A stretch of DNA of 63,819 nucleotides, counting the filler, from Pseudovirgaria hyperparasitica (lineage: Eukaryota): assembly GCA_010093815.1 (NCBI GenBank). It is 6 parts of 6 records of this genome, joined end to end, with 100 filler letters (N's around TTAATTAATTAA, not from the genome) between each part and the next. Parts side by side here need not be neighbours in the genome. Positions count along the whole stretch, not along the records: positions 31,819 to 52,173 come from ML996617.1; 5 more parts are not named here. One strand, 5' to 3'. The position numbers and the translations under genes were made by a program. Under the pieces are notes generated by a model. The model was given only the letters and a program-made list of their open reading frames with translations. It did not search any database and was not told where the DNA came from. Shown one piece after another: positions 21,207 to 52,173 of this stretch. Positions within the stretch are counted from its first letter, which is position 1, and each line of letters begins with the position of its first letter.

Positions 21207-22920
21207 CTTTGGTTCAATGCTGCCGTAAGAACTACCAAAAGATGACTGTTTCTTCTGATGATCAGTGAGCCAAGAAAATCATACAAATTCAACCCTTGTG
21301 CATTAACAAGCCGCTTGATGGAGAATGAGGAGATACTTATGTGGCTCGGCAAGCCGTGTTACTGAGCCGTTTACATTGATATGCAGAGGACTTAGTGCGC
21401 GCCCTGTCGCTCCCATCGTCGCAAGAACCAAAGCAGCAGCTGGAAAGGCACGGTGGCCCTGCGCCCTTTCAAACTGCGCCTGCTGAACATTAGTCTTGTC
21501 GGAACTTAGGATTCCAAGCCATCCAGATCTTGTACTACCTCAACGAAGGAAGGACTCAATGAAAACGTTAAAGTGACAAACGATATTCCCGTTCAACTAC
21601 GTAGGATCTTCTTGCTGGATTCGCATTCGCGTCTTAATACACTACACAGGTATGGTTGGCGGTCGTAAATGGCGCGAGTGGCGCGAGTCCTGGAGAAGGG
21701 CGCGCAAGAGGCCCACTCTGTATATCGACGTTAGAGGCTCAGTAAGTTCTTGCCAGCGTCGCTCCCGGAGCGGCTCAGTTGAGTCTCGGTATTCTACGGT
21801 GTAAGCAATCAGTCGACTGAGTTCTAGGCAATCTCTTACAGCGCTGTGGTAAGATATACATATGTGACTCAGATGTGAGTTCTACGTGCTGAAAAGCAAT
21901 GTGCGCACAGCAGCACCACTACTCAGTACCGATTCGAATCACACCAAGACTTTACACGTCTCGGACTACGCTTAAATTCAAGCTCAAAGTGTAGTCACGG
22001 TAACGCTGTGGATATCCGGTCACAGCACAAGCCATGTAGCTCAATGCATGAGTCGCACGAGAAACGTCGATGCAAGTTAGTTGATCTTTTAGTAAGTTAT
22101 TCAGTAGTTATTGACCTTGTCAGGAAAGAATTTATTGACTATCCTATTCGATCCGTTTCGGGGGTTCACCGCTTGGACTCAGCATGAAAGCATCACGCTT
22201 TACAAATGATTTACTCGCCAGCTGTCGTATTCTATTCCCATTTGGCAGTCGAATAGAAAGTCGAGTGGCATGGAAAGAATGCTCAAATTCCCATCATCAT
22301 GTCCGCTAATAACGCCCTAACACCGCGTGTATTCCTTTCTTGCCATGGTCACTGCTTCTCCATTTTAGCACTTCCAGTCTATCTATAATAATAATAATAA
22401 TAATATTGTATAACTAGGTAGAGTAGTACTCTACAGGCCTATGCCTCCTCTAGTCTAAGCCACTATGTAAGAAGAAACCCCATAGGGAAAAACTTCCTTA
22501 TGTCTATAACTACATCTCGTTGAACCTCTGTTTCGTCTTGAGTATACAGCCATAGGGTACGCCTATTAGCCTACAGCCTGTGTTACCGTTGTTTTGCCCT
22601 CAGGCAGCACGTGCAGGTGCGGAGGTTATTAGTCAAGGGCTGCCCTCGACTAATAATCGGGGTTCTCCCGGGGTTCTTCCGGTATATGTCGGGTTGCTGC
22701 CGGCGTATGCCGGGTCTCTTCCGGCATATATTTCCGGGTCCACTGGTACTGGAGGAGTGGTAGATGTGTAAGCATCCATCGGGAGACGTCCTTGGGGTAC
22801 TCATTAAGCCATCGTGCGATATCTGAAGTCTTCGTGACGTGGATGAGCCATTGCCGTTGTGTATGGAGGTTGGGGCATATAGCTAGATAGTGGCGTATTG
22901 TACCTCTCCGGCCGCACGCC

Positions 22921-25692: not shown

Positions 25693-27140
25693 TGGGTACT
25701 AGGGAGTGTATATGCCTGCATGCTTATTCCTCGGAGGCGCGACTGTCCTCGCGCGGCAGCGGCTTTAACTATGCCTTTTGGTCGTCCCATCGTCTTCGGG
25801 ACAGTCTGCCATCCCGCCTGACTACCTTCCGGAGGGGAGGTTGGGGGTGTTGCAAAGGAAGGGCCCGTGGTGGGTGTCATGTTCTGTAACCATCTCGCGC
25901 CTCTCGCTTTTATCGTGCGAATGTATTCTGTGACCTGTTTGCGTTTTGTGCACGTTGACGACCACGACGGGTGTTTCCCGTCGCAGTTTGAACACTGTGC
26001 TGTGTCCCTGTTTCTTGGTCCGTCTCCTCGCGGTTCATGAGGGCACTCCTGGGTGGCGTGGTCCCCACGGCACCATCCGCACTTGGTCTTCTGTGAGCAC
26101 CTTTGTGCAGTGTGTCCATACCCTTGACAGTTGAAGCACTGTGTCATTGCCCATGCCCTATCCCATGGCTCGGCCATGAGGAGCTCTCCTTCTGCTAGGA
26201 ATCCCTCCTGTGTAATGCGTTGTGCGAGGGCGGGGTCTCGGAGCTCCACAATTATAGTGGAGTGTTTTTTCGCCGTCGTCTTAATCGCCTGTGGGTTCTT
26301 CCACCACGCTTTCACGATCTTAATCCCTGGGTATTTTCGCGCGTTGGATTGTTCCATGCGCGTAATATCCTCCGCTCCGATAGCCTGTCCCCGCACGGGT
26401 ACTGCGTGTACCATAATCGGGTATGTGGCTGCCCTAATGGACGCGCCGGGGAAGATGCTGCCTATCGCGTTCGGATCTCGCGAGATGTTTTGCTGCGCAG
26501 TATTCGTTGTGGTAGTGAGTACTACCCCACCTGGCGTAACTTTAGCAGCCACGACGCTCGACCACATTCCTTTCTGTTCGTTAATCTTGTTTACAATTTC
26601 CTTTGGGGATGCCTGTTGGACCTGCGCCAGCGTGTCCTTGTCCTGGATTGCGACACGTATACTACATGCTCCATCCATGGTCCTGGTGGTCCTTGGTGCG
26701 GTGGCTCCGGGTGTTGCTGCAATCTGAGCCCACGTGTTAGGGCGCTTACCTTGGGATAGCTCTTCCTGGATTCTCCGCAGGCTGGCTTCCATTCGGTCGA
26801 GCCTACCACTGGGTTCCTCTCGTGGCGACTTCCTTTCTTCCTCCGTGATTCCTCTTAGGTTCCGGATAAGGTCCCGGAATACATGAAGGAGGGTCTTCTT
26901 TCCCTCCTCGGCGTCCCTCTCTGCACGTGTTGCCTGGTATTCGATTTTGTCTAGGAGGGTCTCCCCTCTCGGGGTCCCCTCGGTCTGGGTTGTCTGTGGC
27001 GCTTCGCACCCTTGGTTAGTTCCTGTATTTTGGACAGGTGTCTGGCTGTCCACATTGATGTCGCTATATGGCCGTTTCTGCCGTACTGGTGGGGGCATAT
27101 CCGGCGTATGCCGGGGTATTGCGATGCCTGAGGCCGCCAT
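25689..27140 (-). CDS. LINE ORF1, gag-like nucleic-acid-binding protein
   Basis: Three Cys/His knuckles: CFNCQGYGHTAQRC, CGWCRGDHATQEC, CSNCDGKHPSWSSTC. Confidence 0.95.
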   Translation of the reverse strand: MAASGIAIPRHTPDMPPPVRQKRPYSDINVDSQTPVQNTGTNQGCEAPQTTQTEGTPRGETLLDKIEYQATRAERDAEEGKKTLLHVFRDLIRNLRGITEEERKSPREEPSGRLDRMEASLRRIQEELSQGKRPNTWAQIAATPGATAPRTTRTMDGACSIRVAIQDKDTLAQVQQASPKEIVNKINEQKGMWSSVVAAKVTPGGVVLTTTTNTAQQNISRDPNAIGSIFPGASIRAATYPIMVHAVPVRGQAIGAEDITRMEQSNARKYPGIKIVKAWWKNPQAIKTTAKKHSTIIVELRDPALAQRITQEGFLAEGELLMAEPWDRAWAMTQCFNCQGYGHTAQRCSQKTKCGWCRGDHATQECPHEPRGDGPRNRDTAQCSNCDGKHPSWSSTCTKRKQVTEYIRTIKARGARWLQNMTPTTGPSFATPPTSPPEGSQAGWQTVPKTMGRPKGIVKAAAARGQSRLRGISMQAYTLPSTQ

Positions 27141-31818: not shown

Positions 31819-33060
31819 ACTACTCGCCTTACCAAGTTAGAACGCTTAGTTTCTAGAATAATAAATATTATATTACTAATTACTTACTTAGACAAGCTAA
31901 TAACCTCGCTCTATATAATAAATAATATTAATATACTACTCATAGAGACCGTTCAATAAATATTTAGAATCCACAGCTATTAACACATTATATATACTAA
32001 TATTAATAGAGATTACGCGTACATAGTAAATAACTTAATATATAATATAGACTTATTATGTTTTACTTAGTAGATTGTTACTAAGCTCTTCTATTATAGC
32101 ATTATACTTAATCACGTACTCTATATTTCTATATATACTACCTAACGTAATCTATTTAAAGAGATAGTTAGGAACTCGCTTCTAACTATACTTACCATAG
32201 CAGATAAAGCTCAATTTAATACTCTATCTAAGCCGGTATAGAAGCTTATCTAATAGCGTTTATAGAACGGTTCTTAGAGTTATAATAATAATATAGTCCT
32301 AATTAACCCAGTCTAAACTAATTACTTCAGCTTTCTCTTAGAAGGAAACCATAATATTATTACTATTATACACGCTAAATAGATAATAGTTATTATTACT
32401 AACTTCGTATCTCTTAAGAGATAGAAAGTCCTAGACAGTATACTTAGCAAGATATAGAATAAGTACTCTAAGATTTATACAATATACACGTGTATAACCC
32501 CCAACCTAGATAACCTCCCTCTACTCTCTAATATATCTAATCTCTAATATAGTTACTCTATACTTAGTATTAGAGAGAGGGAAGAACGAAGTAATTAATA
32601 AACTACTAATAGTACTAAGCCCCGTAAGCCGCTAGTCTACCGTAAATATAATATTAAAGAATATAAGTCTATTAAGTATCTAAGAGGGTTAACGCTTATA
32701 TATAATAACTATTAGAATATTAGCTATAAAGCTAATATTTACCCTAAACCTAAGACGCTTACAGGTACATTTTACTATAATTATAAAACTACTAGTTATA
32801 CCCAGTATTATTATCCTAGCCATACTAAATTACTAGTATATATAAATAGTAATAATCTAGTTAATACTACTAGAGCTAATACTACTAGAGCTAATACTAC
32901 TAGAACTAATACTACTAGAACTAATACTACTAGAACTAATACTACTAGAGCTAATACTACTAATAAAGTAACTACTAGCGGCTAGGATAATAGAGACTAC
33001 GAGGATACTAACCGAGATAGCGGTATTATAATATATAAAGATATAGAAGTTAATTAGTAA
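31819..33060 (+). pseudogene. RIPped gene relic with a C-terminal CCHC knuckle (possibly a MULE- or pogo-type transposase)
   Basis: 32617-32682 reads KPRKPLVYRKYIIKEYKSIKYL, which reverts by transitions only to KPRKPPVCRKCxxEGHKSxKCP (C-x2-C-x4-H-x4-C). A 15-bp tandem repeat lies at 32862-32963. No DDE core is visible before the linker. Confidence 0.4.
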
Positions 33061-34367
33061 TAGTATACGATTAGACTTACGTATTAGGGCTACTTAGTTA
33101 CGGCTTCTTAGTAAGTATATCTCTATATCTATTTTAGATATAGTTATGATATTCTACTAGATAGATAGTTTAGCTCTATTAAAGACCTATTAAGGGTATT
33201 TCTATTACGTCTACTCTAGTATAGACGCGCTATTAGATAATACGGCGCTACTAGGTACGTTAACTAGTATCTACCGATTAAGAAATAAACACGATTCTAT
33301 ATCTACTATAAGCCCCGGCCTAATAACGTAGGCTTCCTTTAGTTATCCCCTTTATACTTTTAAAACTACTTCTAGCCTTTATATTAGAAGATATTACTAT
33401 CTAAAGAGAAAATATAAAAAAATATACGCTCTAATTAAAGCCTCTACCTTTAGACTTTAACTATAATATATATAGGATATAGTAAACCTAAATATTACGT
33501 ACTTTAAAAGTATAGAAGGATATAATACTTAAATATAATAAAATATAGACTTATAATACTCGGAGAGTATCTAGGGATAAGTATATAAATATAAAATGGG
33601 ATAAGACTAACGCGGTACCTTATATATACGTGGCTATATACCGTCCTAGACGTAGTCGCCTACGATATAATATTATAAGATAAGAATTATAGCTATCTAA
33701 TTCTATTAAGGGTATTAGATAATATAAAGTAAATAACTATACGTCTAACCACACTACACTAAGTTACATACATATTATAAACGCGTATTTAAGGAATAAT
33801 AAGAATATAAATAAGGTTCACCTAGTAGATACCTTATTATTCTAGCTTCTACCTCTATTATCTAATCTATACCTCTATCTTCCTCACGCCTATAATATAC
33901 TATATATATACTATATAATTAGTCTATAAATTATAAACACTATATTAACTACATACATTAACTACATATAATTAATATATTAAATCCAATTCTATAATAA
34001 AGTAACCATCTAAATATAGTAATTACTATAGTACTACTTCGTATCTTAAGCCTAGATATATAAGTAAAGCATAAAGCTATAGAGGCGCATATAAGGTAGC
34101 TATATATAGAAGTATATATAGCTACTCTACTCATAGACTATAGGCATTAAACTAAGAATAAGCTTAGTATAAAAAGAGTACATAAGATTATTAATAAGGT
34201 AGTAGATAAATTTCTAGTAGTATAGAAAAGAGTAGTAGAGTATATAGAGATAAAGACACTATACTATATCTATAACTAGGTACGTACTATAGTATAGAAA
34301 ACCATATATTATAGAAAAACTATCTCTAAGTATAAGAAGAGACGCGTAATTATAGCTCTATATTCTA

Positions 34368-34475
34368 TAACCTTATAATCCCCACCTATTATAACCTTAT
34401 AACCTCCGCCTATTACAACCTTATAACCCCTATCTATTATAACCTTATAGCTCTTATATACTATAACCTTATAGT
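34368..34475. repeat. 24-bp tandem repeat (ATAACCTTATAAcc..cCTATT) x~4
   Basis: Visible periodicity. Confidence 0.75.
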
Positions 34476-36009
34476 CTATACTTATAGCGGTCCTATAGCC
34501 TACTAATATATATACTACAAGAAAAATTAAATTTATAATTAGATTTAATAATAACATATTCCTTAAAATACTAGTACCTATATCTAACTAGTAGAAAGAC
34601 TATAGCAACGCTTCGTGTATTAATTTAGTAGTATTTATATAGCAAATTAGAATCTAATACATAATAAAGACTAGGAGAGCACTAAACTAGAGCCATACTA
34701 CTATATATTCTATCATACTAGTAGTCAAGTATATAATAAGTAAAACAGAACTAGAGGTAGATATTAGATAGCTCCTATAGTTAGTAATCAAATATATTCT
34801 AGAATATAGTAATAGTATAATACTCCTCAGCCTTAGATAGAATATAGATAGTATACCTAAAGTAAAATAAAATATAAACTAGTAACTAATATATAATAGT
34901 ATAGACAGCTATATATAGGTTACACTTAAATAAATCCACCTCTCCATCCCTAATACTATACTCACTATAATTAGTATAATAATAGTAATAGAAAGCTACC
35001 GTCTATAACGGTAGAGATATCTACGGAGATAGTATTATAGGTAGTAGATAGTATTATCAAAATAACTTAACCCTTCCTCTAGCAATACTATATATACTAC
35101 TATTAGTACCCAGAAAGTTATAAGACTAATCTATAAGCTCTAAAGATAGTAACTTCAAAAGCCTTAAAAGTACCTTAGATATAGAGAATATAGATATCGC
35201 TTTTAAAGACTAATAGAATAATAAAAAGGGTGCTAGAGATAGTAAGAGTAGCGTACATACTTAGCTAAGGTAATACAATCCGACATAAGACGGCTTCTAC
35301 CTACTATATATTAGTATATACCCAATTCTACTAGCTATATAACTATAGTATATATATTCAGTTAAGATATTACAACACCAGTATAAGCCGGCATCTACCT
35401 AGTTTATATTAGAATACACCCGGTCCTACTAGCTATATTATTACTATAACTATAATCATATAAGATCTACTCTAATAATTAAATATTTACTTATATACTT
35501 TACTTCCTCTATACTTATTAAAATTATATTATAATTACTAAACACAGTAACTTAACTCCTACCGCCTAAATCTAGTTTTTATATCTTATTACTATTAACG
35601 CTATCTTACTACCTATAGCCTAAGTTATATATAGAAATAGATAGATATAACAAGAGTCACAACTATCCTAGTTTAACTACCAGCTATAGAATAGCTAACT
35701 ATAATACGCATATACAACGTACAGAGGCCTTAAGCATTAGCACCCTCCTACCTTATATCTAGTACCTCCAAGACCTATATCTAATATCTAAAATAAGTTA
35801 TAATATATATAGAGCTACTATTATTAAGATAGTAAGTAAAGAAGTAGTAATAGAGCTTAAAACTAGTAGTATAGATACTACTATACTCTATAGAATAGTT
35901 AAGGAAACCGTTACTAGAGAATTTAATTAGTATATCGCGGCTATAAATAGTAAGTTAGTACTAATAGTTATAACCATAGATATAATAGAGGCTAAACTAG
36001 ATATAGATA

Positions 36010-36905
36010 CTATAGATATAGATATATAGATATAGTTACCGCTAGAATATAAGGAGAAAGATAATATAGAAGATACTAAAATAGAAGACGACGTAGCTAG
36101 TATACTTAGATATATATATATATACATGGTTCTAGATACTAATATTAGAGTAGTATTAAATATAGGCGTGGTTATAACTACTAATATAGATAATCTATCT
36201 ATAAATATTATTATATCTAACGAAGCTTATTTACGCGTAAATACACTAGCTATAGAGATATAGTTATAGTTACTACCGGAATATAAGAAGAAAGAGAATA
36301 TAGAAGATACTAAAATAGAAGATAACGTAGCTAGTATACTTATATATATATATAGTTCTAGATACTAATATTAGAGTAGTATTAAAGATAGATACGGCTA
36401 TAACTACTAATATAGATAATCTATCTATAAATATTATTATATCTAGTAAAGCTTATCTATACGTAAATATACTAGCTATAGAGATATAGTTATAGTTACT
36501 ATTAGAATATATAGAGAAAGAGAATATAGAAGATACTAAAATAGAAGACGACGTAGCTAGTATACTTAGATATATATATATATATATATATAGTTCTAGA
36601 TACTAACATTAGAGTAGTATCGAAGATAGATACGGCTATAACTACTAATATAGATAATCTATCTATAAATATTATTATGTCTAGCGAAGCTTATCTACGC
36701 GTAAATATACTAGCTATAGAGATATAGTTATAGTTACCGTTAGAATATATAGAGAAAGAGAATATAGAAGATACTAAAATAGAAGATAACGTAGCTAGTA
36801 TACTTAGATATATATATATAGTCCTAGATACTAATATTAGAGTAGTATTAAAGATAGATATAGCTATAATTACTAATATAGATAATTCCCCTACGAATAC
36901 CATTA
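36010..36905. repeat. ~230-240-bp tandem repeat x~4 (RIPped)
   Basis: TATAGAAGATACTAAAATAGAAGA recurs four times, at about 36065, 36299, 36524 and 36763. Confidence 0.9.
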
Positions 36906-39100
36906 TGCCTCTAGATACCGGTAAGACTTATCTATAGCTACTAGAAATAAAGAGGATACTCTTAGATAATATAGTAAACCTAGTTAATTCTCCGAAACGC
37001 CTAAAACTAGAATATATTATACTACTAGATATCGACTAGTAGACACGTAAAAACTAGAAACTATTTAGATTAGTAGATAATTTATATAGTAGATATATAT
37101 TAGATAGTATATTAGCGAACGGCCTTAACTTTAAAATCCTTTCTATAGATAATAACTCTAATAGAGATAAAGTAAAGCTAGATATAGAGGACTTAATTCT
37201 AGTAGATAATAATATTAGTATAAAACTATAGGAAGCGTAAGTTATACTAAGAAGTAAGTAGGAATATATACTACTATACTAATATACCTATAGAATATTT
37301 ACCGTTAATAACTCTAATAAAGTAGTCTAAGCTATCTCTTATTATACGGAAGAGATATAGTTACTTACTATAAGTATATTTAGGCTTATACTAGATAACC
37401 TAATAAAGGAGTTTAGCTATATACCTACTCTATATCTAGCCTTTAGTATAAGTAGATTATATAGGCTATAGGCCGGCTAGTTACTCGCGGTAGTTACTAT
37501 ATTTAAGTAGCGGGCGGGTCTATAGAAGTACTAGATCTTAGTAGATAGCCTAGGGCTAGAGAAGATAATCGTACTTATAACGTTTATCTACCTTACGTTT
37601 TATTAGGACTTTCTATATAATAATATAGAACTTAATCTAGAAAATTATCTATAACTAACTTAAGACTCGGGTATAGATAGAAAGTATCTAATATAATCTC
37701 TATATCCGATTAAATGTCCGTGTAGCTAGACTAATAATTTTATCTATATACCCCGCCTTTAAGGACTATTTATACTATACTATCTAAGGTCCCTTCTAAT
37801 AGTATATTAGCCGTAGCGCTTTAAATAGATATATAATAATATAGATAGTATATTTACTAATTAAATTAATAAATAGAACCCGATAAAGATAATAGTACGG
37901 CTAGTATACTTAAAAACCCTTACTAACGCCTCTAGTATCTAATAATTCTTATATATAGACTAATAATACTTAGCTAAGAGATACCTATACCCCGAATAGA
38001 AATATAGCGTTAATATTAGTAATACTACTAAATTAAAGACTAATAAGAAGTATATTATTAGGGCATGGTTAATTCCTATTAATAGAACCGCTACTACTAA
38101 ATTTCCATTACGATATATAAAGAACTATATAATCTATAGTACCGTCTAGAGTATAGAACTCTAATATCTTAAATCTTTTATAGAACGCGTGGTTATAAGA
38201 ATAAAGAGAGTAAAAAAATTTAGTACTAAAAATACTTAAACTCGCAAAGTAGTATTCCTTAGTATATTAATAGTAGATAAGTTCTATTCCGTAAAGAACC
38301 CCGATATAAAATAGTATAAATATATAATATATAATACCTTTATATTTAGTATATAGATTAGTATAACGCCCCTCTTAAATAGTCTAGTAGATATTCTAGT
38401 AGCTATTAAGGTAGGTACTCTAGATAAGTTATCTAACTATATTAATAATAATACTACTAAAAGAGTATTTAAGAGTCTATAGAATAAAACTATAAGGAAG
38501 ATTATTATAACGTGGTTAAATAAACTCCTTAGTTTAATAAAAAATAAGCTAGTAGATATAATAGCCGCGATAGTCTATAGAGTATTAGAAACTATAGAAG
38601 GTAAGTATATACTATATATAGTAGCTAATTAATATTTACTATTTATTCTATAATAGAGACTACTAACTAAATAGTTTAATAGAGAGGTATATCTATCTAT
38701 AATATTAAAGCTAGTAGTAGAGTTTATATCTATTCTAGCTATAGAACTAGAGAAGATAATTATATAGTTATACGAGAATAGAGGTAAATAGTTTAATAAT
38801 CTATAGTCTAATAGAACGCCGTAGGACTTATAGATATAATCTACCGCCTAGAGTAAATTAAATAGGGGTACCGGGTCCGGGCTTAACATATACTACTACT
38901 AGACTAGGCTAGCTACTATATATATACTACTTATATACCTTACTAATAAAAAGATAGAAGATAAGTAAATTAATATTATACTTACGCGTTAGAGGGATAG
39001 TAATAATAGTATACTAAGTAAGATAATTACTAATCCCGTACGCGAAGCGCTTCTATAGCTAGATAAGACTATATAAAAGAAGATAGTATTACTAGCTAAT
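36900..39100 (+). pseudogene. RIP-inactivated SNF2-family (SF2) ATPase/helicase gene; boundaries approximate
   Basis: Same-frame motifs recoverable by transition-only reversal: ILVDSLGLEKII>ILADGLGLGKTI (37535-37570), LIVDKFYSVKNPD>LIVDEFHSVKNPD (38267-38305), *ISITPLLN>WISATPLLN (38354-38380), and GTGSGLN (38867-38887). Intron-like GTAAGT at about 37254 and 38601. Confidence 0.72.
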
Positions 39101-39902
39101 AAATATACTTTAAAGGTAAACTAGATCCGTAACTTTATTAATAATAATATTTATAATAAAAGTACTAGACACGCGTGATAAACATCCGCCGACCACCTAG
39201 AGAAAATTATACTTATATATATTATACTAGTAAGCTTAATATTTCTATACTTAGTAAGTGTTTATACTATCTACTAGTAACGTAATTTACTAATATATAT
39301 AGATACTACGTCTATATATATAAGCGAAAATATTAGTATATTTACTAGCCGGCCTAAGTATATCCGAATTAAATAAGATATATAGATTATTTAGATTAAC
39401 TAAGTCGGATTCTCTATATATTCTACTAGTATTAGCTTCATAGGTCTACGAAGGATAAGATCTAATAGTTATTAGTTTTATAGTATTAGTAGACTAATAC
39501 TTACGTAAGAAGACGTGGCCGTAGATAAGTATAAGATATTATTACTATAGATAATATTAGCCTATAGTATATATATATACTTTAATTTTAGACTATTTAG
39601 AGATTAAGGCTAGACTTACCGCGTTAGATAAGGTAATCGAAAGTACGAGAATATAAGTCTTAGACCTAGAAAAAGAAGATATAGCTATAGTAGAGATAGC
39701 TATACCTAATATACTAGTAATAGGCGTATACTTTAATCCTATAGAGATATAGTAGTATAGAAGTAAGTAAGGTAGTTGGTTAATTAGCTTCTAAGAGACT
39801 ATATAGTATAGTAGTATAAATATAAACCACTATTTACTTATAATTATATATCTATATATATCTATACGTGAAGAGAAATAAGATATTTATTCTATACTAT
39901 TA

Positions 39903-42900
39903 ACCTTATAAAAAAACTTCTCACACCCTAACGGACCAAACTAGTCAATTCGGGGTAAAACAGCGATTTATATACATTAAACGATAGAGCATACCGAGTA
40001 TAACAACCTCCGACACACGTGCGTACGTGCAGCGTATAATACACGACGATACCGACATATAGAGATACTATATACATACGCTCGAAGACTCTTCGATAAC
40101 ACGAGCATAGACTACATCTAATAAATGCCGATACGCCGACCCCCTTTTATTAGTTAAGGGCTACCCTTAACTAATAATCATAGCGGCCTTAGGCACCGAC
40201 GTACCCCGGCTTCTACCGGGTATACCCCTAATACTAGTACGGTAGAAACGGCTATATAGCGGCATATTCTAGGACGATTAAACCCCCGTCTAATAAACGA
40301 CGAATAACTAAGGGTGTATAATACTATAGATAATGGAGACGGAGGGGACCCTGCCCGGGGAGACCCTCCCGGATAAGATTAACTACTAGGTAGCACGTGT
40401 AGAGAGGGAAGTCGAGAAGGGAGAAACGGCCCTCCTTAGTATCTTCCGGAACCTCGTCTAGAATATTAGGGAGCTTACTATAGGAGTAAAACAGGCGCCG
40501 GAATTAGACCTAGAATCTAGACTAGATCGTATAGAGGCCAGCCTATAGAGGATCTAGGAGGGCCTCGCCTAGGGAAAACGCCCTAGCACGTGGGTATAGG
40601 TCGCCGTACCTATAAGCGGAATAGCCATGTTAGCTAAAATACCAAGGGCACCCACGGACGGGGCATATAGTATATAAGTCGCTATCTAGGATAAAGAAGT
40701 ACTTATATAAGTCTAGTAAGCGTCTCTAAAGGATATTATAAATAAGATTAATAAATAGAAAGGGATATAGTTAAATATAGTGGCTGCCAAACTCACCCTA
40801 GAAGGTATAGTACTAACTACTACTACTAACACGGCCTAGTAGACTATCTCACGCGACCCGAACGCGATTAATAATATCTTCCCTAGCGCGTCCGTCCGCG
40901 TAACCACGTACCCGATATAGGTATATACTATCCCCGTCTAAGGACACGTTATCGGAGAAGATAATATTAAGCGAATAGAGTAATCTAACGAACCGAAGTA
41001 CCCTAGGATTAAGATCGTAAAGGCGTGGTAGAAGAACGTCTAAGGGATTAAGATAAAATCGAAAAAGTACTCTACTATAATAGTAGAGCTTAGGGACCCC
41101 GCTCTCGCCTATAGAATAATATAGGAGGGCTTCCTAGCCGAAGGAGAGCTACTCACGGCGGAACCATAGAATAGGGTATAGATAATAACGTAATACTTTA
41201 ACTATTAGGGATATAGGTATACTAGGTAGAGGTACTCTTAGAAGACCGCCTATGGGTAGTATAAATAGGGCCATAATACTAAGGAATGCCCTTATAAGAC
41301 GTAGAGTGACGAGACGCGAGATAGGAACACCGCTAAGTACTCTAACTACGATAGAAAACACCTATCCTAGTCGGTAACGTGTACGAAATGTAAGTAGGTC
41401 GTAGAATATATTAACGCGATAAAGATAAGAGGAGCGAGGTGGATATACTAAGCCATAAGGCCCTCGCTACCCTCGCCGCTATCTCTAACTTTACTTATAA
41501 ATCTAGTAACCACCCCCCGAAGGGGAGAGGATAACGTGTAATAGTATACTATATAGAGAAAGATAGGCCGACCCCGGGGTATACTTAAAGCCGCTACCGC
41601 GCGAGGATAATCACGCCTTAGCGCCACTAATATATAGACTCGAACTTTCCCTAGCACCTAATAAGGGCATAAGATATACTTATTATTATATAGGCGAACG
41701 TATAACATAAATAAGAAAACTAAGCGACGCTCCTAGAAGAGATAGGAGCCGTAATAATAGCCATCTAGGAACCATATAAACACTACTAAACTAATAAGCT
41801 AATAATACACCTAGGATACTATACCATCTATTCTATAGGCCCGGATAGGAGAGTTATATTTTATATATATAAGTCGATCCCGCTCTTAGAATAGTCTTAT
41901 ACCGAACGTAATAACCTCCGGATAACGCTATATCTCTAGATAAGTATAGGGCCTGTCCACATCTATAATATCTATAATTAATAGCGATCGCTTACGCTAG
42001 ATGATATACTAGAGGGCACCACGACGCCGGGATAATATATCCTCCTAGGCGACTTTAATCTCTACCATAGGTGGTAGGGAGGCCTAGCCGTCGCGAGAGA
42101 AGAACTTAGAGTAAGGGAACTATATATATGGTACTACGACTTCCTATACCTCCTTATACCTATAGGGTAGATTACCTAGAGGAAATATAAATAGGATGAG
42201 GACGGGTCTACGCTCGACCTCACCCTCGCTACTAAGTATATTAGCTATAGAGTATAGTACTACCGCCCGAGCCGGATATAGACGGACTCCGACCACGAAT
42301 GTATAGAAACCATAATAGACGTCTCCACTCTTAATAAATAATATAGAAAATAGCTATAGAAGGACACCGATTAGAATAAATACCTAGAGGACCTAGAATC
42401 GGCGATTCTAGACCCCTCTATAGTCGACGTATCTAACGGCCTAGCCATAGATAAGGCCGTGTAAGTCCTCCTTTAAGCATACTAAGTTATAAGAGATAAA
42501 CACGTGCTATACCGAACGTATAGACCCCTAGAAGCGAGGGGTATACCTTAAATACGAGAGTGTAGAAGAGACGCCCGTAGACTATATATATATATATACT
42601 ATATCCGGACGACCGAGGCGTGGGAAGAGTAGAAGGAAGTAGTGCGATATCGTGATAGGGCCCTCCGTAATAAACGACGAAAGTAATAGTATATAATTAC
42701 TAATAAACACACACGGTAAGCCGTAGGGCTATAGCGTATGGTAAAGTAGGCTAAGGGTGTAGACGCGCCGACACCGCCGCTACTAATACCTCCCCTAATA
42801 TACTAAGAGAGGATATACTCTATAAGCCCGGAGAAGACGGAGATCTTATATAAAGTTATATTCCCCCTCCCGGAGCTAGTAGACCTATTAGATATTAATA

Positions 42901-45228
42901 ATACTAAATATCTAGACGTAATTAATATTCCCTAAGAGGTTACTAAGGAGGATATACTCGACGCTATTAAAGTACTCCCGAATAATAAGGCACCCGGACC
43001 GGATAGAATACTAAATAGGTGCCTTAAACGCACTATACTAGCTACCCTACCGCTTATTAGTTATATATTTTAAGTATATATTAAGAACGGATACCACCCC
43101 TAAAGCTTCCGGGCCGTCTATACCGTTATACTCCCGAAACTAGAGAAGAACTCTAACTCCCTAAAAGGATAGAGGCTAATTACCCTTCTCTCCTATCTCG
43201 GGAAGATACTAGAGGCTATAATCGCGAAGAAGATAAGCGCCGTAGTATAGGAATATAACCTCCTCCTAGTAAACCAGAAGGCGAAGGCTAGAAGCTCCCT
43301 AATTACCGCTATCTAATATATCCTCGAAGTCGTCTAGGCCGTATAGAAGTAGGGACGTATAGTAACGCTACTCTCCCTCGATATAGCCGGCGTATTTAAT
43401 AAAGTAAACCATACGAGACTCATCTATAACTTACGGAAGAGGTATATACCCGCGTAGATTACGCGGTTTATATAGTCCTTCCTCGCCGAAAGAGTTACCT
43501 AGATATATATCCCCGGATATCGAAGTAAGTATAAGAAGATGGCTTACGGCATCCTATAAGGAAGTACTATCTCCCCGATTCTATTCCTCTTCTTTACTAT
43601 AGACCTCCTCTAGAGAATATAACGTATAGAGGTAGTAGGGTACGTAGACGATATATACCTTCTAGCTATTAATAATAATACTAGCTAAATATATAGACGA
43701 CTCGAATAAGACCACGGGAGATACGTCTAATAGGTAAAGCGCTATAGAGTAAAGTTCGCCCCCGAAAAGTACTAACTTATATACTTTATTAACCGCTATA
43801 GGAAATGGGCTACTAGGGAAGGCAAGCGATACTCTAGAATAGACGCCTTTAACGAACCGCTAATATAAAGCATGTACGCACTCGGCGTTATGATCGATAA
43901 TAAGCTTAAATGGGGACTATAGATAGTATACGCCGTTTCTAGGGCCCTCTAGGTAGAAGCCGCTATATAACGGATTATAGCCTCCACGTAGGGAACCGCC
44001 CGGGATAAGGCACGCTAACTATATATATCTATAGTACGACCCGCCTTTATATACGGACACGAGTGCTAGTATACGGCCCTTATATAGACTAGGCAAATAA
44101 AGCTCGAATCCATATAGAACCGTATACTCCATCTTATATTAGGCGTATATAAAGCTACTAACACGGTGCTACTACGACGCGAGATAGATATTATAAGTAT
44201 ATATAACTTCTACTAGATATAGAGGGTAGTATACTTTACTAAATAATAAGCATAGGAACGTGTAGAAAAAGTAGAATATACCTTCGCCGCGCTACGCGCG
44301 TGAGTTAGTATATACTACTAAGCACTCTTATATATAGGCTAGACTCGACTACGGTATAAGTACCTAATAGAAATAGACTTAAACCGAGTAGTATAAGAGA
44401 TTAAGGATAACCTAGATACCCTTCTAGACTAATAGAGTCTTCGAGAGCTCGGACGAAGTATACGGTCGTGGATCTAAGATAAGTAGAAAGAGATACTCTA
44501 GGCCTAGTAGGCCTCCTAGTAGAATAGGTACCTAGAGTAGATCTAAGGACCATAGAAGGAGCCGAGTAAATAAATATATAAAGGGCTTATAAAGGCCTAG
44601 GTATCTATACTCCTCTAAGCCCGAACGGGCGCTATAAAACTCCTATACTACCTCTATAAGAGAGGCGTCCCCGACGTGTCTCTATAGTATAAGGCGTGTA
44701 GCCGGAGAGGTATAATACGCTACTATCTCGTAATATACCCTAATCTTTATACGTAAAGGTAGAAGCTTATCTATATAATAAGAACCTCCGATATCGTATA
44801 ATGGCTTAATAAGTACCCTAAGGATGTCGCCCGATGGATAATTATATACCTACCACTCCTCTAATTCTAGTAGACCCGGAAATATATACCGGAAGAGACC
44901 CGGCACATGCCGGTAGTAACCCGATATATACCGGAAGAACCCCGGGAGAACCCCGATTATTAGTTAAGGGTAGCCCTTAACTAATAACCTCCGCACCTAT
45001 ACGTGCTATCTAAGGGTAAAATAACGGTAATATAGGCTATAGGCTAATAGGCGTACCCTATAGCTATATACTTAAGACGAAATAGAGGCTTAACGAGATG
45101 TAGTTATAGATATAAGGAAGTTTTTCCCTATGGGGTTTCTTCTTATATAGTGGCTTAGACTAGAGAAGGCATAGGCCTGTAGAGTACTACTCTACCTAGT
45201 TATATAATATTATTATTATTATTATTAT
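39903..45228 (+). mobile_element. Full-length RIPped LINE, same family as 22388-27413
   Basis: Colinear with the un-RIPped copy from the 5' AAAAAACTTCTCACACCC to the (TAT)n tail. TSD (TTAT)TCTATACTATTA at 39887-39902 and 45225-45240. Confidence 0.95.
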
Positions 45229-45240
45229 TCTATACTATTA

Positions 45241-45770
45241 TATAGTAGAACGTTACTATATATAGTAGTATATAATAGAATATTCTAATATATACTAGTA
45301 TATTATAGAATATTTCTAGATACTTAAAGTATAGTTATAGTATAAAGTAGTATTATAATTATATACTAGTATATAGTAGGACGTTACTATATATGCCGGT
45401 ATATAACGGGATATTCTAATATACTATACGCCGGTATATTATAGAATATTCCTAGATACTTAAAGTATAGTCGTAATATAAAGTAGTATCGCTATACTAC
45501 GCCGGTATATAGTAGAATATTACTATATATACTAGTATATAATAGAATTAAATATTTTCTTAACGTTCTCTTAATATTCGATAGAATAATTCTAAAAGAA
45601 CTAGAATAACTCTAGAAGAACTAGAATAACTCTAGGAGGACTAGGATAACTCTAGAAGGACTAGAATAACTCTAGAAGGACCGGGACGACTCCGGGAGGA
45701 TTGGGATAACTCTAGAAGTACCGGGATCTATTTAGAATAACTTTAGAAGTACTAGGATATCTAGAAGCAT
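45241..45770. repeat. Tandem arrays: ~133-bp unit x2.3 (45241-45548) and 20-bp CTAGAATAACTCTAGAAGGA-like unit x~8 (45585-45770)
   Basis: Directly visible; least-mutated unit CCGGGACGACTCCGGGAGGA. Confidence 0.85.
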
Positions 45771-46172
45771 TGGGAGCGCCGTATCTTTTCTAATATAGTA
45801 ATAACTAATCTATATTTATATAGACCTATACTAACTAAAATAGTCTATTCTAGTCTACTACTATCTTAATTACTCTAATCTAAGAAACTACCTTACTTTA
45901 ATAGTAAAAGTAGAAAGAGTTTCTATATATAGACTTATTAATATAGCTAATTCTTCTATCTATTCACGAATAATAGTAATAAAATTAGATTTATCTAGAA
46001 CTACCTTAATCTAATACCTTTAGAATATTAGATAGTATACTATATTAAATATTCTAAGAATACCTATAACTAGAACATGTTTACTAAATTTCTTCTCTAA
46101 TATTTTAGTAAAAGGGCTAAATAATATAACTAGACCTAGAGCTATATCTTTAAGACTTAATAATAAGATAAT

Positions 46173-46477
46173 TATAAAAAAGGTAGGTATAAATAGATAT
46201 ATAATATTTCTTAGATAAGGAATATATATCTAAATAGAGTTATATAATAGAATCTAGCTATAATAGACTATTATATAATAAATAGATCGGTAGAGTATAG
46301 CTTAAAGATAATAAGAATATAGTATAATTCTTAAAGTAAAGACTAGATAGAGAGAGAACTAAATATATAGAGAGACCGTTCCTTATATATTTCTCCTTAT
46401 ATATTCTAGATCCTTCTCTCTATTAATAATAGGAATTTTCTAGACCTCTAGATATATATATATATTCTATAGCTCTA
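46173..46477. repeat. RIPped LTR, same family as 15945-16241
   Basis: Colinear match along nearly the whole length. Confidence 0.88.
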
Positions 46478-47160
46478 GTAGTTTCCTTAGAATAGAATAG
46501 AGTAGAGTAGAACTCTATAGAACTTATAGACTCTATAGTAGAATCTTATAGAACTCTATAGAAGTTCATGTTTCTAAAGACCTCTAGAAGTTTCTAGAAC
46601 CTTCTAGAAACTTCTATAAGAGTATAGAGTATTTATATATATAAGTAGTTAGTATTAGTAATATCGATTACTAATACTAAGCTATTCCTAATAAGGAAAT
46701 ACCTTATAGAAACTTATTAGATATAATAGAGGTTAAGTTTATACACCCCCTTAAGTTTTATAAGGTATCTATATATATAGATATATATAAATAGTCTTAG
46801 AAGATGTTTATAAGTCTAATCTTACTAATAAAGTCTTAAAATTTCTCTTTATTAGTTTATTTAGTTAGATTATTACTTAATATAGTACTAGTATTTTTAT
46901 AAACTAGTTTTATTTTATTAGAGCTTAGATTCTCTCTAATAAAGTAATAAGTAATATCTATATACTTAGTTCTAGTATAGTATATAGGGTTTTTAGCTAG
47001 TTCTATAGTACTTAACGAGTCTATTTTAATAGTATTTATTTTATTAAAGATCTTATAATACTCTTTAATATTAGAGTTACTATTAAAGAGTTCTTTAATA
47101 AAATTATTTAAGAATAGACTCTCTTTAGTAGCTTCTTTTAAGGCTATATATTTTATAAGA
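46478..47160 (-). mobile_element. 3' remnant of a RIPped copia element (RNase H end, PPT, 3' LTR)
   Basis: The minus strand reads YIALKEATKE...IELAKNP..RTKYIDI.YYFIRE. PPT AAGGGGG at 46752-46746 is followed by TG-start LTR ~46745-46478. Part of the same LTR recurs at 55070-55193. Confidence 0.8.
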
Positions 47161-47519
47161 GTTTTAAAAGGGTATATATAAAATAGATATATATAATACC
47201 CTTAGAAGAATAGGTAGTATAGAAGGTATCGTAAATGAATAAGACTAAGGGATATAATATATAGTATATAAAGTATATTTAATTAAAAGTCTTAAGGAGA
47301 CGACTATCTACGGCTATAGAAAGGTCTATATATATATGATTTACGTGCGTTATTATCAAGAATCGATAATATATATTAAATGGTATACTAAATACTAATA
47401 GTATTCTATAATTATCCGATTTAGTCTTTTTTGGTATACTAAGAGTTAATATATTAATTAATATATTATCTCTATCTATGTACTTCCGATTCCTACTTAA
47501 TCTAATATAAGCTAGTACT

Positions 47520-50500
47520 AGCTTATATTAATATAAGTCTCCTAGTCTATAGTCTCTAAGGAAGTTATAGAGTCTAGTCTAGTCTCTAGAGTAGAATAGA
47601 GCTAGTTACCTCTAGAGTAGAGTAGAGGTAGAATAGCTCTAGAGTAGAGTAGAGGTAGAATAGCTCTAGAGTAGAGTAGAGCTAGAATAGCTCTAGAGTA
47701 GAGTAGAACTAGAACTCTTCTATAGAATACTAGAGAATATACTTCTATAGAATAGAATAGAGTAGAGCTAGACTCTTATTCTATATAACTTATATATTAT
47801 ATATAATAGATTATAAGGTTATTATATATATAAAACTTATACACCCCCTTAATCTATATATATATATATATACCTTATATACTATTTTTTTATTTTTATA
47901 GGTTATTAGCTCTATTAATTAAATTAATAGAGTCTATAAAATACTTCTATATAGAGTAGTTAACTGCCTTAGTTAGACTATCTACTATTTGGTTCTTAGT
48001 ATTTATATATATTAGATTAATTACCTTCCTTAGGTAATTATCTCTAATAAAATGGTATTAAATGTCTATATACTTAGTTCTAGCATGATAGGCTGGATTC
48101 TTTGTAATTTCTATAGCTGATTGATTATCTATATATAAATCCTTAATCTCTATATTATTTAATATAGGAATTTGAGTAATAAGAGACTTAATATATAATC
48201 ATTCCTTAGTTACTTTCTTAAGGGCCATATATTCAGCCTCACAGGAACTAAGTGCTATAGTTTTTTATAATTTTGAATCCCAGGAGATAGGGTTATTCCC
48301 TATTAGGAATATATATCCAGTAGTACTTTTTCTAGATATATCCCCCCCCCAATCTGAGTCTACATAACCTTTAGCTACTATATTATTAGATTTAGAGTCT
48401 TTAATAGAGTCTCTATTAATATAGAGCTCTATTTCTAAATCCTTAGAAAATAATATATATTGCCATAGCTTATTTAAGGCTTTAAAGTGTTCTAGACTTG
48501 GATTAGATATAAATCTAGCTAGATAGCCTACGGGATATTTTAGGTCACATCTAGTTAGACTAGTTAAATAGATAAGAGAACTAATTTCCCTTTGAAATTA
48601 TCTAATATCTTTTAATTTAGCTTGTAAGGGGTTTTTATCTAATTTAATACCTAGAGATAAAGGTATTTTGGATGGCTTTATATTCTCTTTATTAAACTTA
48701 ATTAATAAGTTCTTAATAAAAGAAGATTGAGATAATATAATAGAACCTTTAGTTCTATCTCTCTTTATTTCCATTCCTAGGTAATATTTAGCTTACCCTA
48801 GATTAGATATATCTAATTTAGAGTACTTAGTTATCTCTAAATAGAAGTTATCTATATCTTTAGTATTAGGTGCAAAAACTAATATATCGTCTACATAGGC
48901 TAAAATAATTAGATTATCTCTAATATAGACTGCATTTTCAGCTATAATTTAAGTAAACTTTAAGGATATTAATATATCCTTAAGTAGGTCTTGCCACTCT
49001 CTAGCTAATTGCTTAAGTCTATATAAAGCTCTATTTAATTTATAGACTCTATTAGGGTAATTAGAGTCTATAAACCCCTCTAGCTAGTATATATATATGG
49101 TTTCTTTTAATCTAGCATTAGGAAAAGCTGATTTAAAGTCCCATTGATGTATTTTAAGGTTATATAACCTGCCTATAAGTAGTAATAATCGAATTACTAT
49201 AGGTCTTGTAGTATAAGTAAAGGTTTCTAGGTAATCTATTCCATATTTTTATAGAAAACCTCTAGCTACCTATCTAGCTTTATACTTATTAATGGTATTA
49301 TCTAGGTTTAATTTAATTTTAAATACCTATCTACCAGAGATTATATTAGTAGAACCATTCTTAGGTTTATCTACTAAATCCCATGTATTTTGACTTAATA
49401 AGTCATTATACTCCTTAATAGTAGTATTTTTCTATTCTATAGCATATGTACTTTTCATAGCTTATTTATATAATTTAGGCTCTATAATATCTAAGGATAT
49501 ATTATAAGCACTAAATTTAAATAGACTATTATAAGTATAATAACACATAGCATTAGAACTAATATTACTATTATTAGCATAAGCTAATTCGTCTTCTAAA
49601 TCTGAATTAATAGAGTCTATAGACTGTCTAGGTTGTCTAGAGTCTCTAGACCCTCTAGAGAGTCTAGGTTGATTTTCTCTATTATTCATAAATTGATTCT
49701 GACTATAATTATCACCCGATTCAGCTGTAATTTTAGGAGTATTTAAATCATATATAGACTCATTATCTGTGTAATTTTCGTCTTCTTCTGATTCATTTTC
49801 ACTTAGTTCTCTATATATAGACTCTTACTCTAGAGAGTCTAAGTAGAGTTTTTAACTTTTATTATAAAAAGTACTCTCTAGTATAGTAATATCTTTAGCC
49901 TATGTAGTAGTATTATTACTAATATTAAGTAATTTATACTAATTATTATCATTATAGTTTATAAGATAATATAAGCTACTTCTTGGCTCTAATTTGTTCT
50001 TAGGTATATGTTCCTTTTTATATACTCTAGAACCCTATACTTTTATATGTGTAATAATTAGTTTTTTACTATATTTAAGTTCATAGGGAGTTTTATATTC
50101 TATACTAGAATATGGTATTCTATTATATAGATAACACGTAGCTAATAGAGCTTTAGCCTAGTAATAATAAGGTAAATTAGCTTAATAAAGTAATAATCTA
50201 ACTTTATTAAGTAATGTCCTATTAATTCTCTCTACTTTAGAGTTCTATTCTGGACTATAAGGACATGTATAGGTATATTCTATGCCTTTTTCATTAAAAT
50301 AAGACTTATATAATGATGATTTATACTCTCTAGCATTATTAGAGTGGAATCTCTTTACTTTATTATTATTATTAGACTAGTTTTCTTGTCTAGTAATATA
50401 ATTCTTAGTAATTAAGAAGTTCTCATCTCTATTTTTCATAATATCTACCTCTAGATATTTAGAATAGCCATCTAAATAAGTTATAAAGTATATATAATCA

Positions 50501-52173
50501 TTTATAGTAGATGGTAAAGGACCATAAATGTCACTATATATAACCTCTAGATATTCCTTAGGTTTAGGAATATAATTAGACTTATATATTTTAGTATAAC
50601 TAGCCTTTAGACATATTTCATACTCTTTATATAATAGATTATTATCTAGGAATTCTATAATCTTATCATTTTTAAGTTGATTTAATGCCTTTTGATTTAT
50701 ATAGCCTAATCTATTATGCCATAAATCTATAGTAGAATTAATAGAACTACTTTGAGTGTCTATAATCTTATTTTCTATAGAGGTATATAAAGAATCAGGT
50801 TCTTTATATATAGGAGTTGTCTCAAGAATACTAATATTATTTATTATACTAGCCTTAGCTAATAGCCTCTTATTCTTTAAATAGATGTAGGCATAGTTAT
50901 CTTTAAATAATATAGACTTTCTATCTCTAATTATCTTTCCTATAGATAATAGATTTACTCTAAAATTAGGTATATAAAGGTAGTTCTTAATTAATATCTT
51001 TATATTAGTAGATGTAATTAGAACTCTATAATCGCCTATACTACTAGCATTTATAACTCTATTTGAATCTCCCTATTTAATAGTATTATTACATTCTTTA
51101 ATACTAATAAAGAGGCTCTTATTAGAGTAAATATTAATGCTAGCCCCTGAATCTATAATCCAAGAGGTTTTATGGAAAGAGCTATTAATAGACTCTATTT
51201 TTTAAATAGTAGAGTCATTAATTAAAGTAGTAAATACCTCTTCTTCTTGTTTAGAAGAAGCATTTATCTCTTTATTCTTCTCTTTCTCTTTCTTTTACTT
51301 TTGCTTTCCTTTCCCCTTATTATAGGGTTTTAAATGAGGATATTTTTTAAAACACTTATCTTCTATATGATTTGGTTTCTTACAGTAAGAGCATTTATTA
51401 GAACTGGTATTATTGGCCATTTCTATATCAATTATCTCATTTTTTGGTAAAGACTTTGATTTTATCCTTCTAGACTCATCTAGTAGATAATTAAATATTT
51501 CATCTATATCTAAATCCTTATCCTTTCTAATAGACTGGGTAATAATAGTTACTAGGTTTTCATATTCCTTAGTAAGGTTATTTAATACCCATGCTATTAT
51601 GAATTTATCAGGTAATTCAAGTAATTTAGACTTTAGATCATCTCTAATTCTTATAATCTTATTTAAATACTCCTCTATATTCTTAGAGGCTCTAAGAGTA
51701 GTATTAAATAATTCTTTATATAATAAGAATTCAGAGCTAAACCCCTTTGCCTAGTATAGATTCTTTAACCTTATCCATAAATTAAAGGGATTTAATATAT
51801 TCCTTGTTTGGAGCAAAGGGCTATTAGCAAGTGCTAGTCTAATAATAGACATAGTCTTTCTTACCATTAGTATATAGTTCTTAATTTCAAGACTATTCAT
51901 GCTCTTAGGATGTGCTTCTATAGTAGTAGTATAACCTTTTTCTATTAGAATAGACTCCATTCTAATAGCCTAGATATTATAATTACTAGCTCCTAAGAGT
52001 CTAGGAATTTTAGATAAATCGCTCATTTTTTAGGTTCTATACTCTGATAAATACAAGTAGAGCTAATCTAGCTCTACTATTTTCTAGAGAGAATTTAGAT
52101 AAATTCTAGAGACCTTAATTTAAGAGCTATGATTATAAGACTTATAATATAAGCTTATAGTAATACTATAATA
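47520..52173 (-). mobile_element. Near full-length RIPped copia retrotransposon (5' LTR lost in the linker)
   Basis: Gag start about 52026 (MSDLSKIPRLLGASNY...LKNLY..KGFSSEFL), knuckle CSYCKKPNHIEDKC, protease WIIDSGA, RT YVDDIL (~48890), RNase H DSDWGG...KNPAYHARTK. PPT at 47850-47844, 3' LTR starting at 47843, PBS relic at 52138-52148. Confidence 0.92.

Follow-up and report, generated by a model that had tools for sequence, protein, structure and literature searches.

The window analysed here is a stretch of 63,819 nucleotides from Pseudovirgaria hyperparasitica (GenBank assembly GCA_010093815.1), made of contigs with artificial N-TTAATTAATTAA-N linkers between them. Positions 31819-52173 (ML996617.1) are bases 1-20355 of contig C53, one of 122 contigs in this 35.4-Mb genome (C-numbers are contig labels), and they begin with what we read, with a probability of about 0.97, as the right part (31819-45795) of a 22-kb Plavaka element, a CACTA-related cut-and-paste DNA transposon, killed by repeat-induced point mutation (RIP). 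On one strand, the full element carries a transposase gene, a superfamily 1 (SF1) helicase gene with two zinc knuckles and a probable gene for a SNF2-like ATPase, in that order, with tandem arrays inside both ends; the features on C53 are collected in Table 1. A sequence-only reading of this DNA had described a RIP-erased unit combining a transposase-like zinc-knuckle gene, a SNF2-family ATPase and terminal tandem arrays, and had offered two explanations, a large multicopy mobile element with its own SNF2-like enzyme or a RIPped segmental duplication. The first is borne out by the copies, the terminal inverted repeats (TIRs) of these and their target duplications, with the SNF2 identity probable and not proven.

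Dense RIP, part of that reading, is evident throughout: the composite RIP index is 1.34-1.66 in 16 of 16 one-kb bins between 32001 and 48000, and most gene-rich bins are negative. Position 31819, which had been taken for the start of the unit, is base 1 of C53 behind an artificial linker and is therefore a contig edge, not an element end. The left ~13.5 kb, including the transposase, lie off C53 and are present in other copies; the window copy is collinear (88%) with positions 13478-22111 of a gap-free 22,112-bp copy on C26. The region is multicopy. Positions 36900-39900 (3,001 bases) have at least 35 matches in the genome, at least 21 of which, counting the window copy itself, span 2,300 bases or more, with 80-93% identity for the non-self copies among these 21; positions 31819-36000 have at least 41. 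One match to the latter stretch, C8:1603435-1607616, is 99% identical, well above the other copies, and is either a duplicate of very recent origin or the product of one set of reads that entered the assembly two times. Two of four listed sequencing runs contain the stretch, both from one sample; none of the four is an RNA run containing it.

Similarity between copies ends at 45794-45798, and six copies were followed 20-30 kb further left to find the other end. Both TIRs were present in five of the six, giving lengths of 22,176, 22,112, 21,942, 22,108 and 22,363 bp; in the sixth, on C4, the left end is absent from the stretch read. The ends are 26-bp inverted repeats of the form CATCA..TGATG, whose pattern has 40 matches in the genome against none for a reversed control. 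CATCAG is retained in two of the 40 (one left end, one right), most of the others reading CATTA, the RIP product. The flanking 2 bp are identical in nine of ten end pairs (ta five times, aa twice, tt and cg; permutation P=0.00017) and differ in the pair C9a; where paired ends lie far apart, as on C7, we infer the pairing. Among eight pairs listed, flank identity stops short of 3 bases in six of the seven that match. The shared ends, TIRs and target duplications for which the earlier reading had proposed to look are thus all present. A RIPped segmental duplication of host DNA would account for the size of the unit and its host-like gene families and for nothing else; the same TIR-bounded ends with 2-bp duplications at unrelated sites refute it, and a transposase lies inside.

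That transposase is recognizable in the C4 copy when stops are read as X, where the Plavaka family PF18759 scores E=4.8e-28 (98.8 bits, cut-off 26.3) about 10 kb left of the position corresponding to 31819. Of the DDE triad with C(2)C and H(3-4)H motifs that belongs to PlavakaB, the acidic motifs and H(3)H can be seen; C(2)C has Tyr at its second Cys in those copies that were compared, the change expected of RIP. A DDE transposase is known to bind the ends of its element, to cut the element out and to leave a duplication of 2 bp. Taken together, ends, duplications and family point to transposition by the Plavaka DDE enzyme. The element fits the published definition of PlavakaB, a group of the CMCT clade (Kojima 2025; PMC12730594), as far as sequence can tell: in the part of that paper available to us, PlavakaB has a Plavaka transposase, 5'-CATCA..TGATG-3' ends and a 2- or 3-bp target duplication, and transposase, ends and 2-bp duplication are common to both. 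The PlavakaB size range also includes this element, PlavakaB-1_GyCo being listed at 24,396 characters in Table S1. An alignment of RIPped transposase copies found nothing in a word-indexed protein set (0 of 7,998 scored). RIP has broken all of the transposase matches found, with stops in 28 of 28 Plavaka matches genome-wide. Our Pfam scan of the left 13.5 kb covered the transposase and part of the SF1 helicase; this part may hold further cargo, TET/JBP included. In the same part (e.g. C26:65408-78884) more low-stop frames are seen, including an acidic minus-strand frame near 700-1700. The window also holds, on a different contig, a 2.1-kb minus-strand piece of another copy (60429-62527, 89%), transposase start included.

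Table 1. Features of the Plavaka element on contig C53 (window coordinates)
Feature	Position	Strand	Remarks
Right part of RIP-killed PlavakaB-type transposon	31819..45795	+	8.6 kb net of LINE
C-terminal (AAA_12) lobe of UPF1/ZNFX1-like SF1 helicase	31819..32420	+	gene begins ~2.8 kb left of contig end
Two CCHC zinc-knuckle relics	32638-32679 and 32698-32742	+	in frame with SF1 helicase
Possible open reading frame with in-frame 24-bp repeat (34350-34474)	34050..34990	+	rough limits; from multi-copy translation
About four 226-238-bp repeats upstream of ATPase core	36013..36886	+	period ~236 bp, 3.8 units
Main exon, probable SNF2-like ATPase	36900..39253	+	motif I 37538, II 38267, III 38357, IV-like 39200
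Predicted intron, 49 nt (54 nt in allele B)	39254..39302	+	predicted from sequence
Last exon, probable SNF2-like ATPase	39303..39750	+	other frame; motif V-like 39444, VI-like 39531
LINE (endonuclease and reverse transcriptase, TAT-repeat tail)	39903..45224	+	just 3' of SNF2-like gene
Subterminal tandem arrays, 133-136-bp and 20-bp units	45241..45727	+	
Right TIR, 26 bp	45770..45795	-	then TA 45796-45797, right half of target duplication

The gene cut by the contig edge encodes an SF1 helicase. The C4 stretch matching 31819-32420 is hit by PF13087 (AAA_12; E=4.3e-10), in the same copy as PF18759, and its frame is the end of a gene of ~1,300 codons; the window copy's own AAA_12 stretch has no Pfam match, nor does the upstream stretch of the C4 copy for the AAA_11 N-lobe. 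Genome-wide, 10 of 25 PF13087 matches fall in copies of this element. Against the PDB, the helicase profile finds ZNFX1 best (E=3.7e-6), and UPF1-like helicases make up 14 of its 15 matches. The Walker B region aligns with ZNFX1, and the Walker A-like motif has one Gly read as Arg in all 13 copies covering it. The zinc-knuckle relic noted earlier at 32638-32679 is real and is followed by a second, the two standing at the end of the gene. Knuckle Cys and His residues are retained in some copies and read Tyr in others, no copy keeping all four ligands. Because the frame that bears the knuckles is the AAA_12 frame, in which Pfam finds no transposase family, they belong to the SF1 helicase gene and not to a transposase, as had been supposed; the Plavaka transposase lies outside the contig.

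An alignment of RIPped SF1 copies found nothing in the word-indexed protein set (0 of 8,000). Un-RIPped single-copy SF1 relatives exist elsewhere in the genome, at C2:597279-597497 (42-46%) and C10:989650-990850 (24-27%), one being frameshifted and the other having an in-frame stop or small intron. A protein cluster search with the C10 relative returned AAA_12 clusters, with an ascomycete cluster at the top and one named ZNFX1 in second place; the same kind of search with an un-RIPped SF1 fragment gave no usable match. A metagenome scan with that fragment left one locus of 130 candidates, which was rejected as a 22-residue match with no open reading frame of at least 100 amino acids over it. 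More distant RIPped SF1 copies, at 52-53% protein identity, lie at C4:1060668-1061765 and C15:837877-838959 and are possibly an older sister family. Also, an in-frame 18-bp repeat stands at the start of the SF1 gene.

The second gene on C53 probably encoded a divergent SNF2-like ATPase, to judge from its translated sequence. Motifs I, II and III share one plus-strand frame, as the sequence-only reading had it, with an unusually long ~240 residues between I and II. The motif V that it placed in this frame at 38864-38887 does not stand: the site precedes motif IV and is lost by partial deletion from allele B, a diverged type of the gene carried by three copies (C7, C30 and one on C9), so that it had been misassigned. 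For the predicted intron, 20 of 21 copies have a GT donor and all 21 have an AG acceptor; it also has a branch-like site, and it is 54 nt long in all three B copies. The upstream repeats, already noticed at ~235 bp, each combine a constant part of 185 bp with an AT-slipped one of 41-53 bp that bears splice-like signals. Where slippage is least the unit is 234 bp, or 78 codons, and in the C7 allele B copy 232 bp; together the repeats probably form the acidic, repetitive N-terminal part of the SNF2-like gene.

A profile was built from 17 host SNF2 genes and scored against a multi-copy reading of the gene and against shuffles. The multi-copy reading scored 9.4 bits (best of 200 shuffles, 4.2), with signal on motifs I and II-III, and the spliced multi-copy reading 10.5 bits (best of 500 shuffles, -0.9). 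The window copy alone scored -3.0 bits, so the signal needs several copies. Furthermore, the patterns for motifs I, II, III, V and VI occur in order within 2 kb, with 0.047, 0.103, 0.387, 0.053 and 0.013 chance matches expected per element, respectively; among the 17 host SNF2 segments, pattern I is matched in 17, II in 11, III in 10 and VI in 11. After addition of the second allele, a PDB search returned CHD1L/ALC1 (3 of 177,635 sequences) as the only matches at E<=10 (E=1.5), and CHD1L can be aligned with the SNF2-style sequence on either side of motifs II and III.

Several results count against the SNF2 identity. The C-lobe alone scored -0.4 bits, where shuffles reach 2.6, and a global hhalign comparison of profiles with the host SNF2 genes gave a probability of 0.04. 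The motif V pattern was composed after the sequence had been seen, and it matches none of the 17 host segments. The alignment without the second allele had no PDB match; the SNF2-like alignment likewise matched none of 1.84 billion representatives and none of 7,999 scored entries of the word-indexed set. Pfam, run on three RIPped copies, placed no SNF2 or helicase family over the gene, and a genome-wide PF00176 search had no copy of this element among its 41 matches. RIP damage may explain the missing PF00176 score, and since neither the transposase nor the SF1 helicase was recovered in the word-indexed search, the blank searches partly reflect that damage. These blanks, the C-lobe at shuffle level, the long gap between motifs I and II and an AlphaFold model of six RIPped rows that was unusable, with a predicted local distance difference test (pLDDT) score of 30.6, would suit a different account, in which the SF1 helicase is the true cargo and the second frame is another superfamily 2 helicase or a chance set of motifs in a RIP-scrambled gene. 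We regard this as improbable given that motifs I-III exceed shuffles against the host profile, that the motif II and III flanks resemble CHD1L and that the motif VI pattern is so rarely met by chance.

The copies also record a history of the element. Over 103 pairs of main-type copies there are 0.07% transversions and 6.9% transitions, which argues for a recent burst followed by RIP; the burst reached some 20-30 copies. At 159 of 162 diagnostic sites the window copy agrees with the main type, called A. Allele B shows 6.7-7.1% transversions against the main type within the SNF2 exon and a difference of 3-12% across most of the 5 kb at the right, whereas five stretches of transposase and SF1 in B-type copies (C30, C34 and C9) differ from the main type by 0.05-0.2%. 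A diverged SNF2 part on a near-identical backbone suggests that the SNF2 cassette was exchanged onto the same backbone, and such cassettes may have been swapped between related elements. The allele B frame is kept over 771 codons with four whole-codon indels, and the intron differs by 5 nt; retention of the frame while intron length changed indicates a real gene. Stops common to all copies number 25, 43 and 28 codons in the three genes, and the CpA spectrum climbs toward fixation; RIP saturation would account for these common stops, as would a founder that was damaged to begin with.

What the two motor genes did for the element has to be weighed against this record. We rather favour the view that the cargo was functional for the element, both genes being standing accessory genes that would have served its own spread. 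The SNF2-like ATPase would most likely have acted as a double-stranded DNA translocase opening chromatin on the element, and the ZNFX1/UPF1-like helicase may have acted on element RNA or on host RNA silencing. Two observations speak against a benefit. The transversions that separate alleles A and B fall evenly on the three codon positions (55/48/60), and the ratio of nonsynonymous to synonymous changes (pN/pS), taken from transversions only and on RIP-damaged codons, is 1.6 (130/1806 vs 19/420; two-sided P=0.05); these figures give no support for purifying selection, and the allele divergence fits relaxed or diversifying selection. Additionally, the stops in all 28 Plavaka matches mean that the cargo gave the element no shield from RIP.

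The main rival explanation is that the helicase genes are captured passengers of no benefit to the element, as in Pack-CACTA-like capture, which we consider possible if unlikely. The missing purifying signal speaks for it, as do the un-RIPped single-copy SF1 relatives (C2:597279 and C10:989895), although each of these has a stop or frameshifts of its own. In Stagonospora nodorum, the RIPped Rad5/SNF2-like block of X3X3R8 has been read as duplicated host genes in the portion of that report available to us (PMC3017866). Against capture, these are full-length genes with introns, which occupy one and the same place in full copies and are far from any intact host SNF2 gene, and the frame is kept in two alleles whose divergence in transversions is 7%. 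There is also a second repeat family in this genome, unrelated to the first, that bears a divergent SNF2 gene.

This second RIPped family lies at C10 ~10500-27000 and also at C3:2314627, C2:18897, C31:139752 and C1:3411564, five of five matches being 90-94% identical to the C10 copy. Its SNF2 gene (PF00176 E=7.8e-9) adjoins a long gene that reads like a fusion of a RecQ helicase with a DUF3505/tyrosine-recombinase-like protein. No bridge beyond motif I was found between this SNF2 gene and that of the Plavaka element (E=0.18 and 0.015).

Whether the cargo of the Plavaka element acted specifically against silencing is a more tentative matter, and we think it doubtful. The idea draws on the accessory genes of published Plavaka elements and on the role of SAD-3 and SAD-6 in Neurospora, where meiotic silencing of unpaired DNA uses SAD-3, a helicase, and SAD-6, a SNF2 protein, according to the available part of PMC5555490. 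In its widest form, which is weaker still, it would make the element one of a giant ascomycete Plavaka lineage with a counter-silencing kit whose two motors belong to the two families that the host employs in meiotic silencing; its SNF2-like module would be swapped and diverge at or above the neutral rate as in host conflict, and other large elements of this genome would also have acquired SNF2-like genes.

Among known systems, chromatin-acting accessory genes in Plavaka have precedents in the accessible parts of two reports. The accessory gene described for PlavakaB is TET/JBP (PMC12730594), where here there are two helicases in a strong-RIP host; the main text of that paper has 'SNF2' 0 times and 'helicase' once, for Helitrons. 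The Plavaka elements of Bostrychia moritziana (bioRxiv 10.1101/2025.02.11.637652) resemble this one in being large (17-19 kb), with tandem arrays and several accessory genes, which are thought to act on chromatin and to move between element families; their cargo is PAG1-3 (DNA methylase/SET, 2-oxoglutarate oxygenase/ParB), and the available text has 'helicase' 0 times. Tuber Plavaka elements (PMC12581995) are likewise from an ascomycete, with 2-bp duplications and TIRs starting CAT, but their TIR motif is CATAC and the passage on them names no cargo. X3X3R8 is, like this element, a RIP-degraded multicopy repeat with SNF2-like helicase genes; compared by description only, it is read as a duplicated cluster of host Rad5/Rad6 homologues, and the portion seen reports neither transposase nor TIRs (PMC3017866). 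No helicase cargo in Plavaka appears in the accessible parts of PMC5751038, PMC4522978 and PMC11152077.

More generally, we found no report of SF1 or SNF2 cargo in Plavaka in the open full-text literature, although subscription papers, Repbase or supplement sequences could hold one. The helicases of AcademH, KolobokH and Helitron are of the RecQ and PIF1 kinds. All three, named in PMC10799480, are likewise helicase-encoding fungal DNA transposons, but with other transposases and other helicase families, and none is known to have a UPF1-like or SNF2-like gene. Giant Plavaka elements with other accessory genes are therefore already known, and the putative two-helicase cargo is what we found without a published report.

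Features less bound up with the element complete the picture of C53. The long interspersed nuclear element (LINE) noted earlier at 39903 has reverse transcriptase (E=1.3e-16) and endonuclease (E=1e-6) domains and a 16-bp target duplication (39887-39902 and 45225-45240). Other element copies continue across the empty site, and the LINE entered the window copy later. The terminal 133-bp and 20-bp arrays of the earlier reading are recovered by tandem-repeat detection at 45220-45548 (period 136) and 45582-45727 (period 20), and in other copies the left end has an 18-bp array on its inner side. Right of the element end, 45796-52173 holds further RIPped repeats, including a minus-strand stretch that by eye resembles Copia gag-pol with long terminal repeat-like repeats.

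The finding is of limited value, since all the copies found are dead and an intact relative is lacking. The accessory genes of DNA transposons are few and hint at defeat of host silencing, as with TET/JBP, SET and VANDAL-type proteins. With a ZNFX1/UPF1-like helicase and a SNF2-like ATPase in a Plavaka element, this set would gain two motor families, here in a strong-RIP fungus. The element also shows that AT-rich RIP blocks conceal 22-kb multi-gene elements that are invisible to protein databases.

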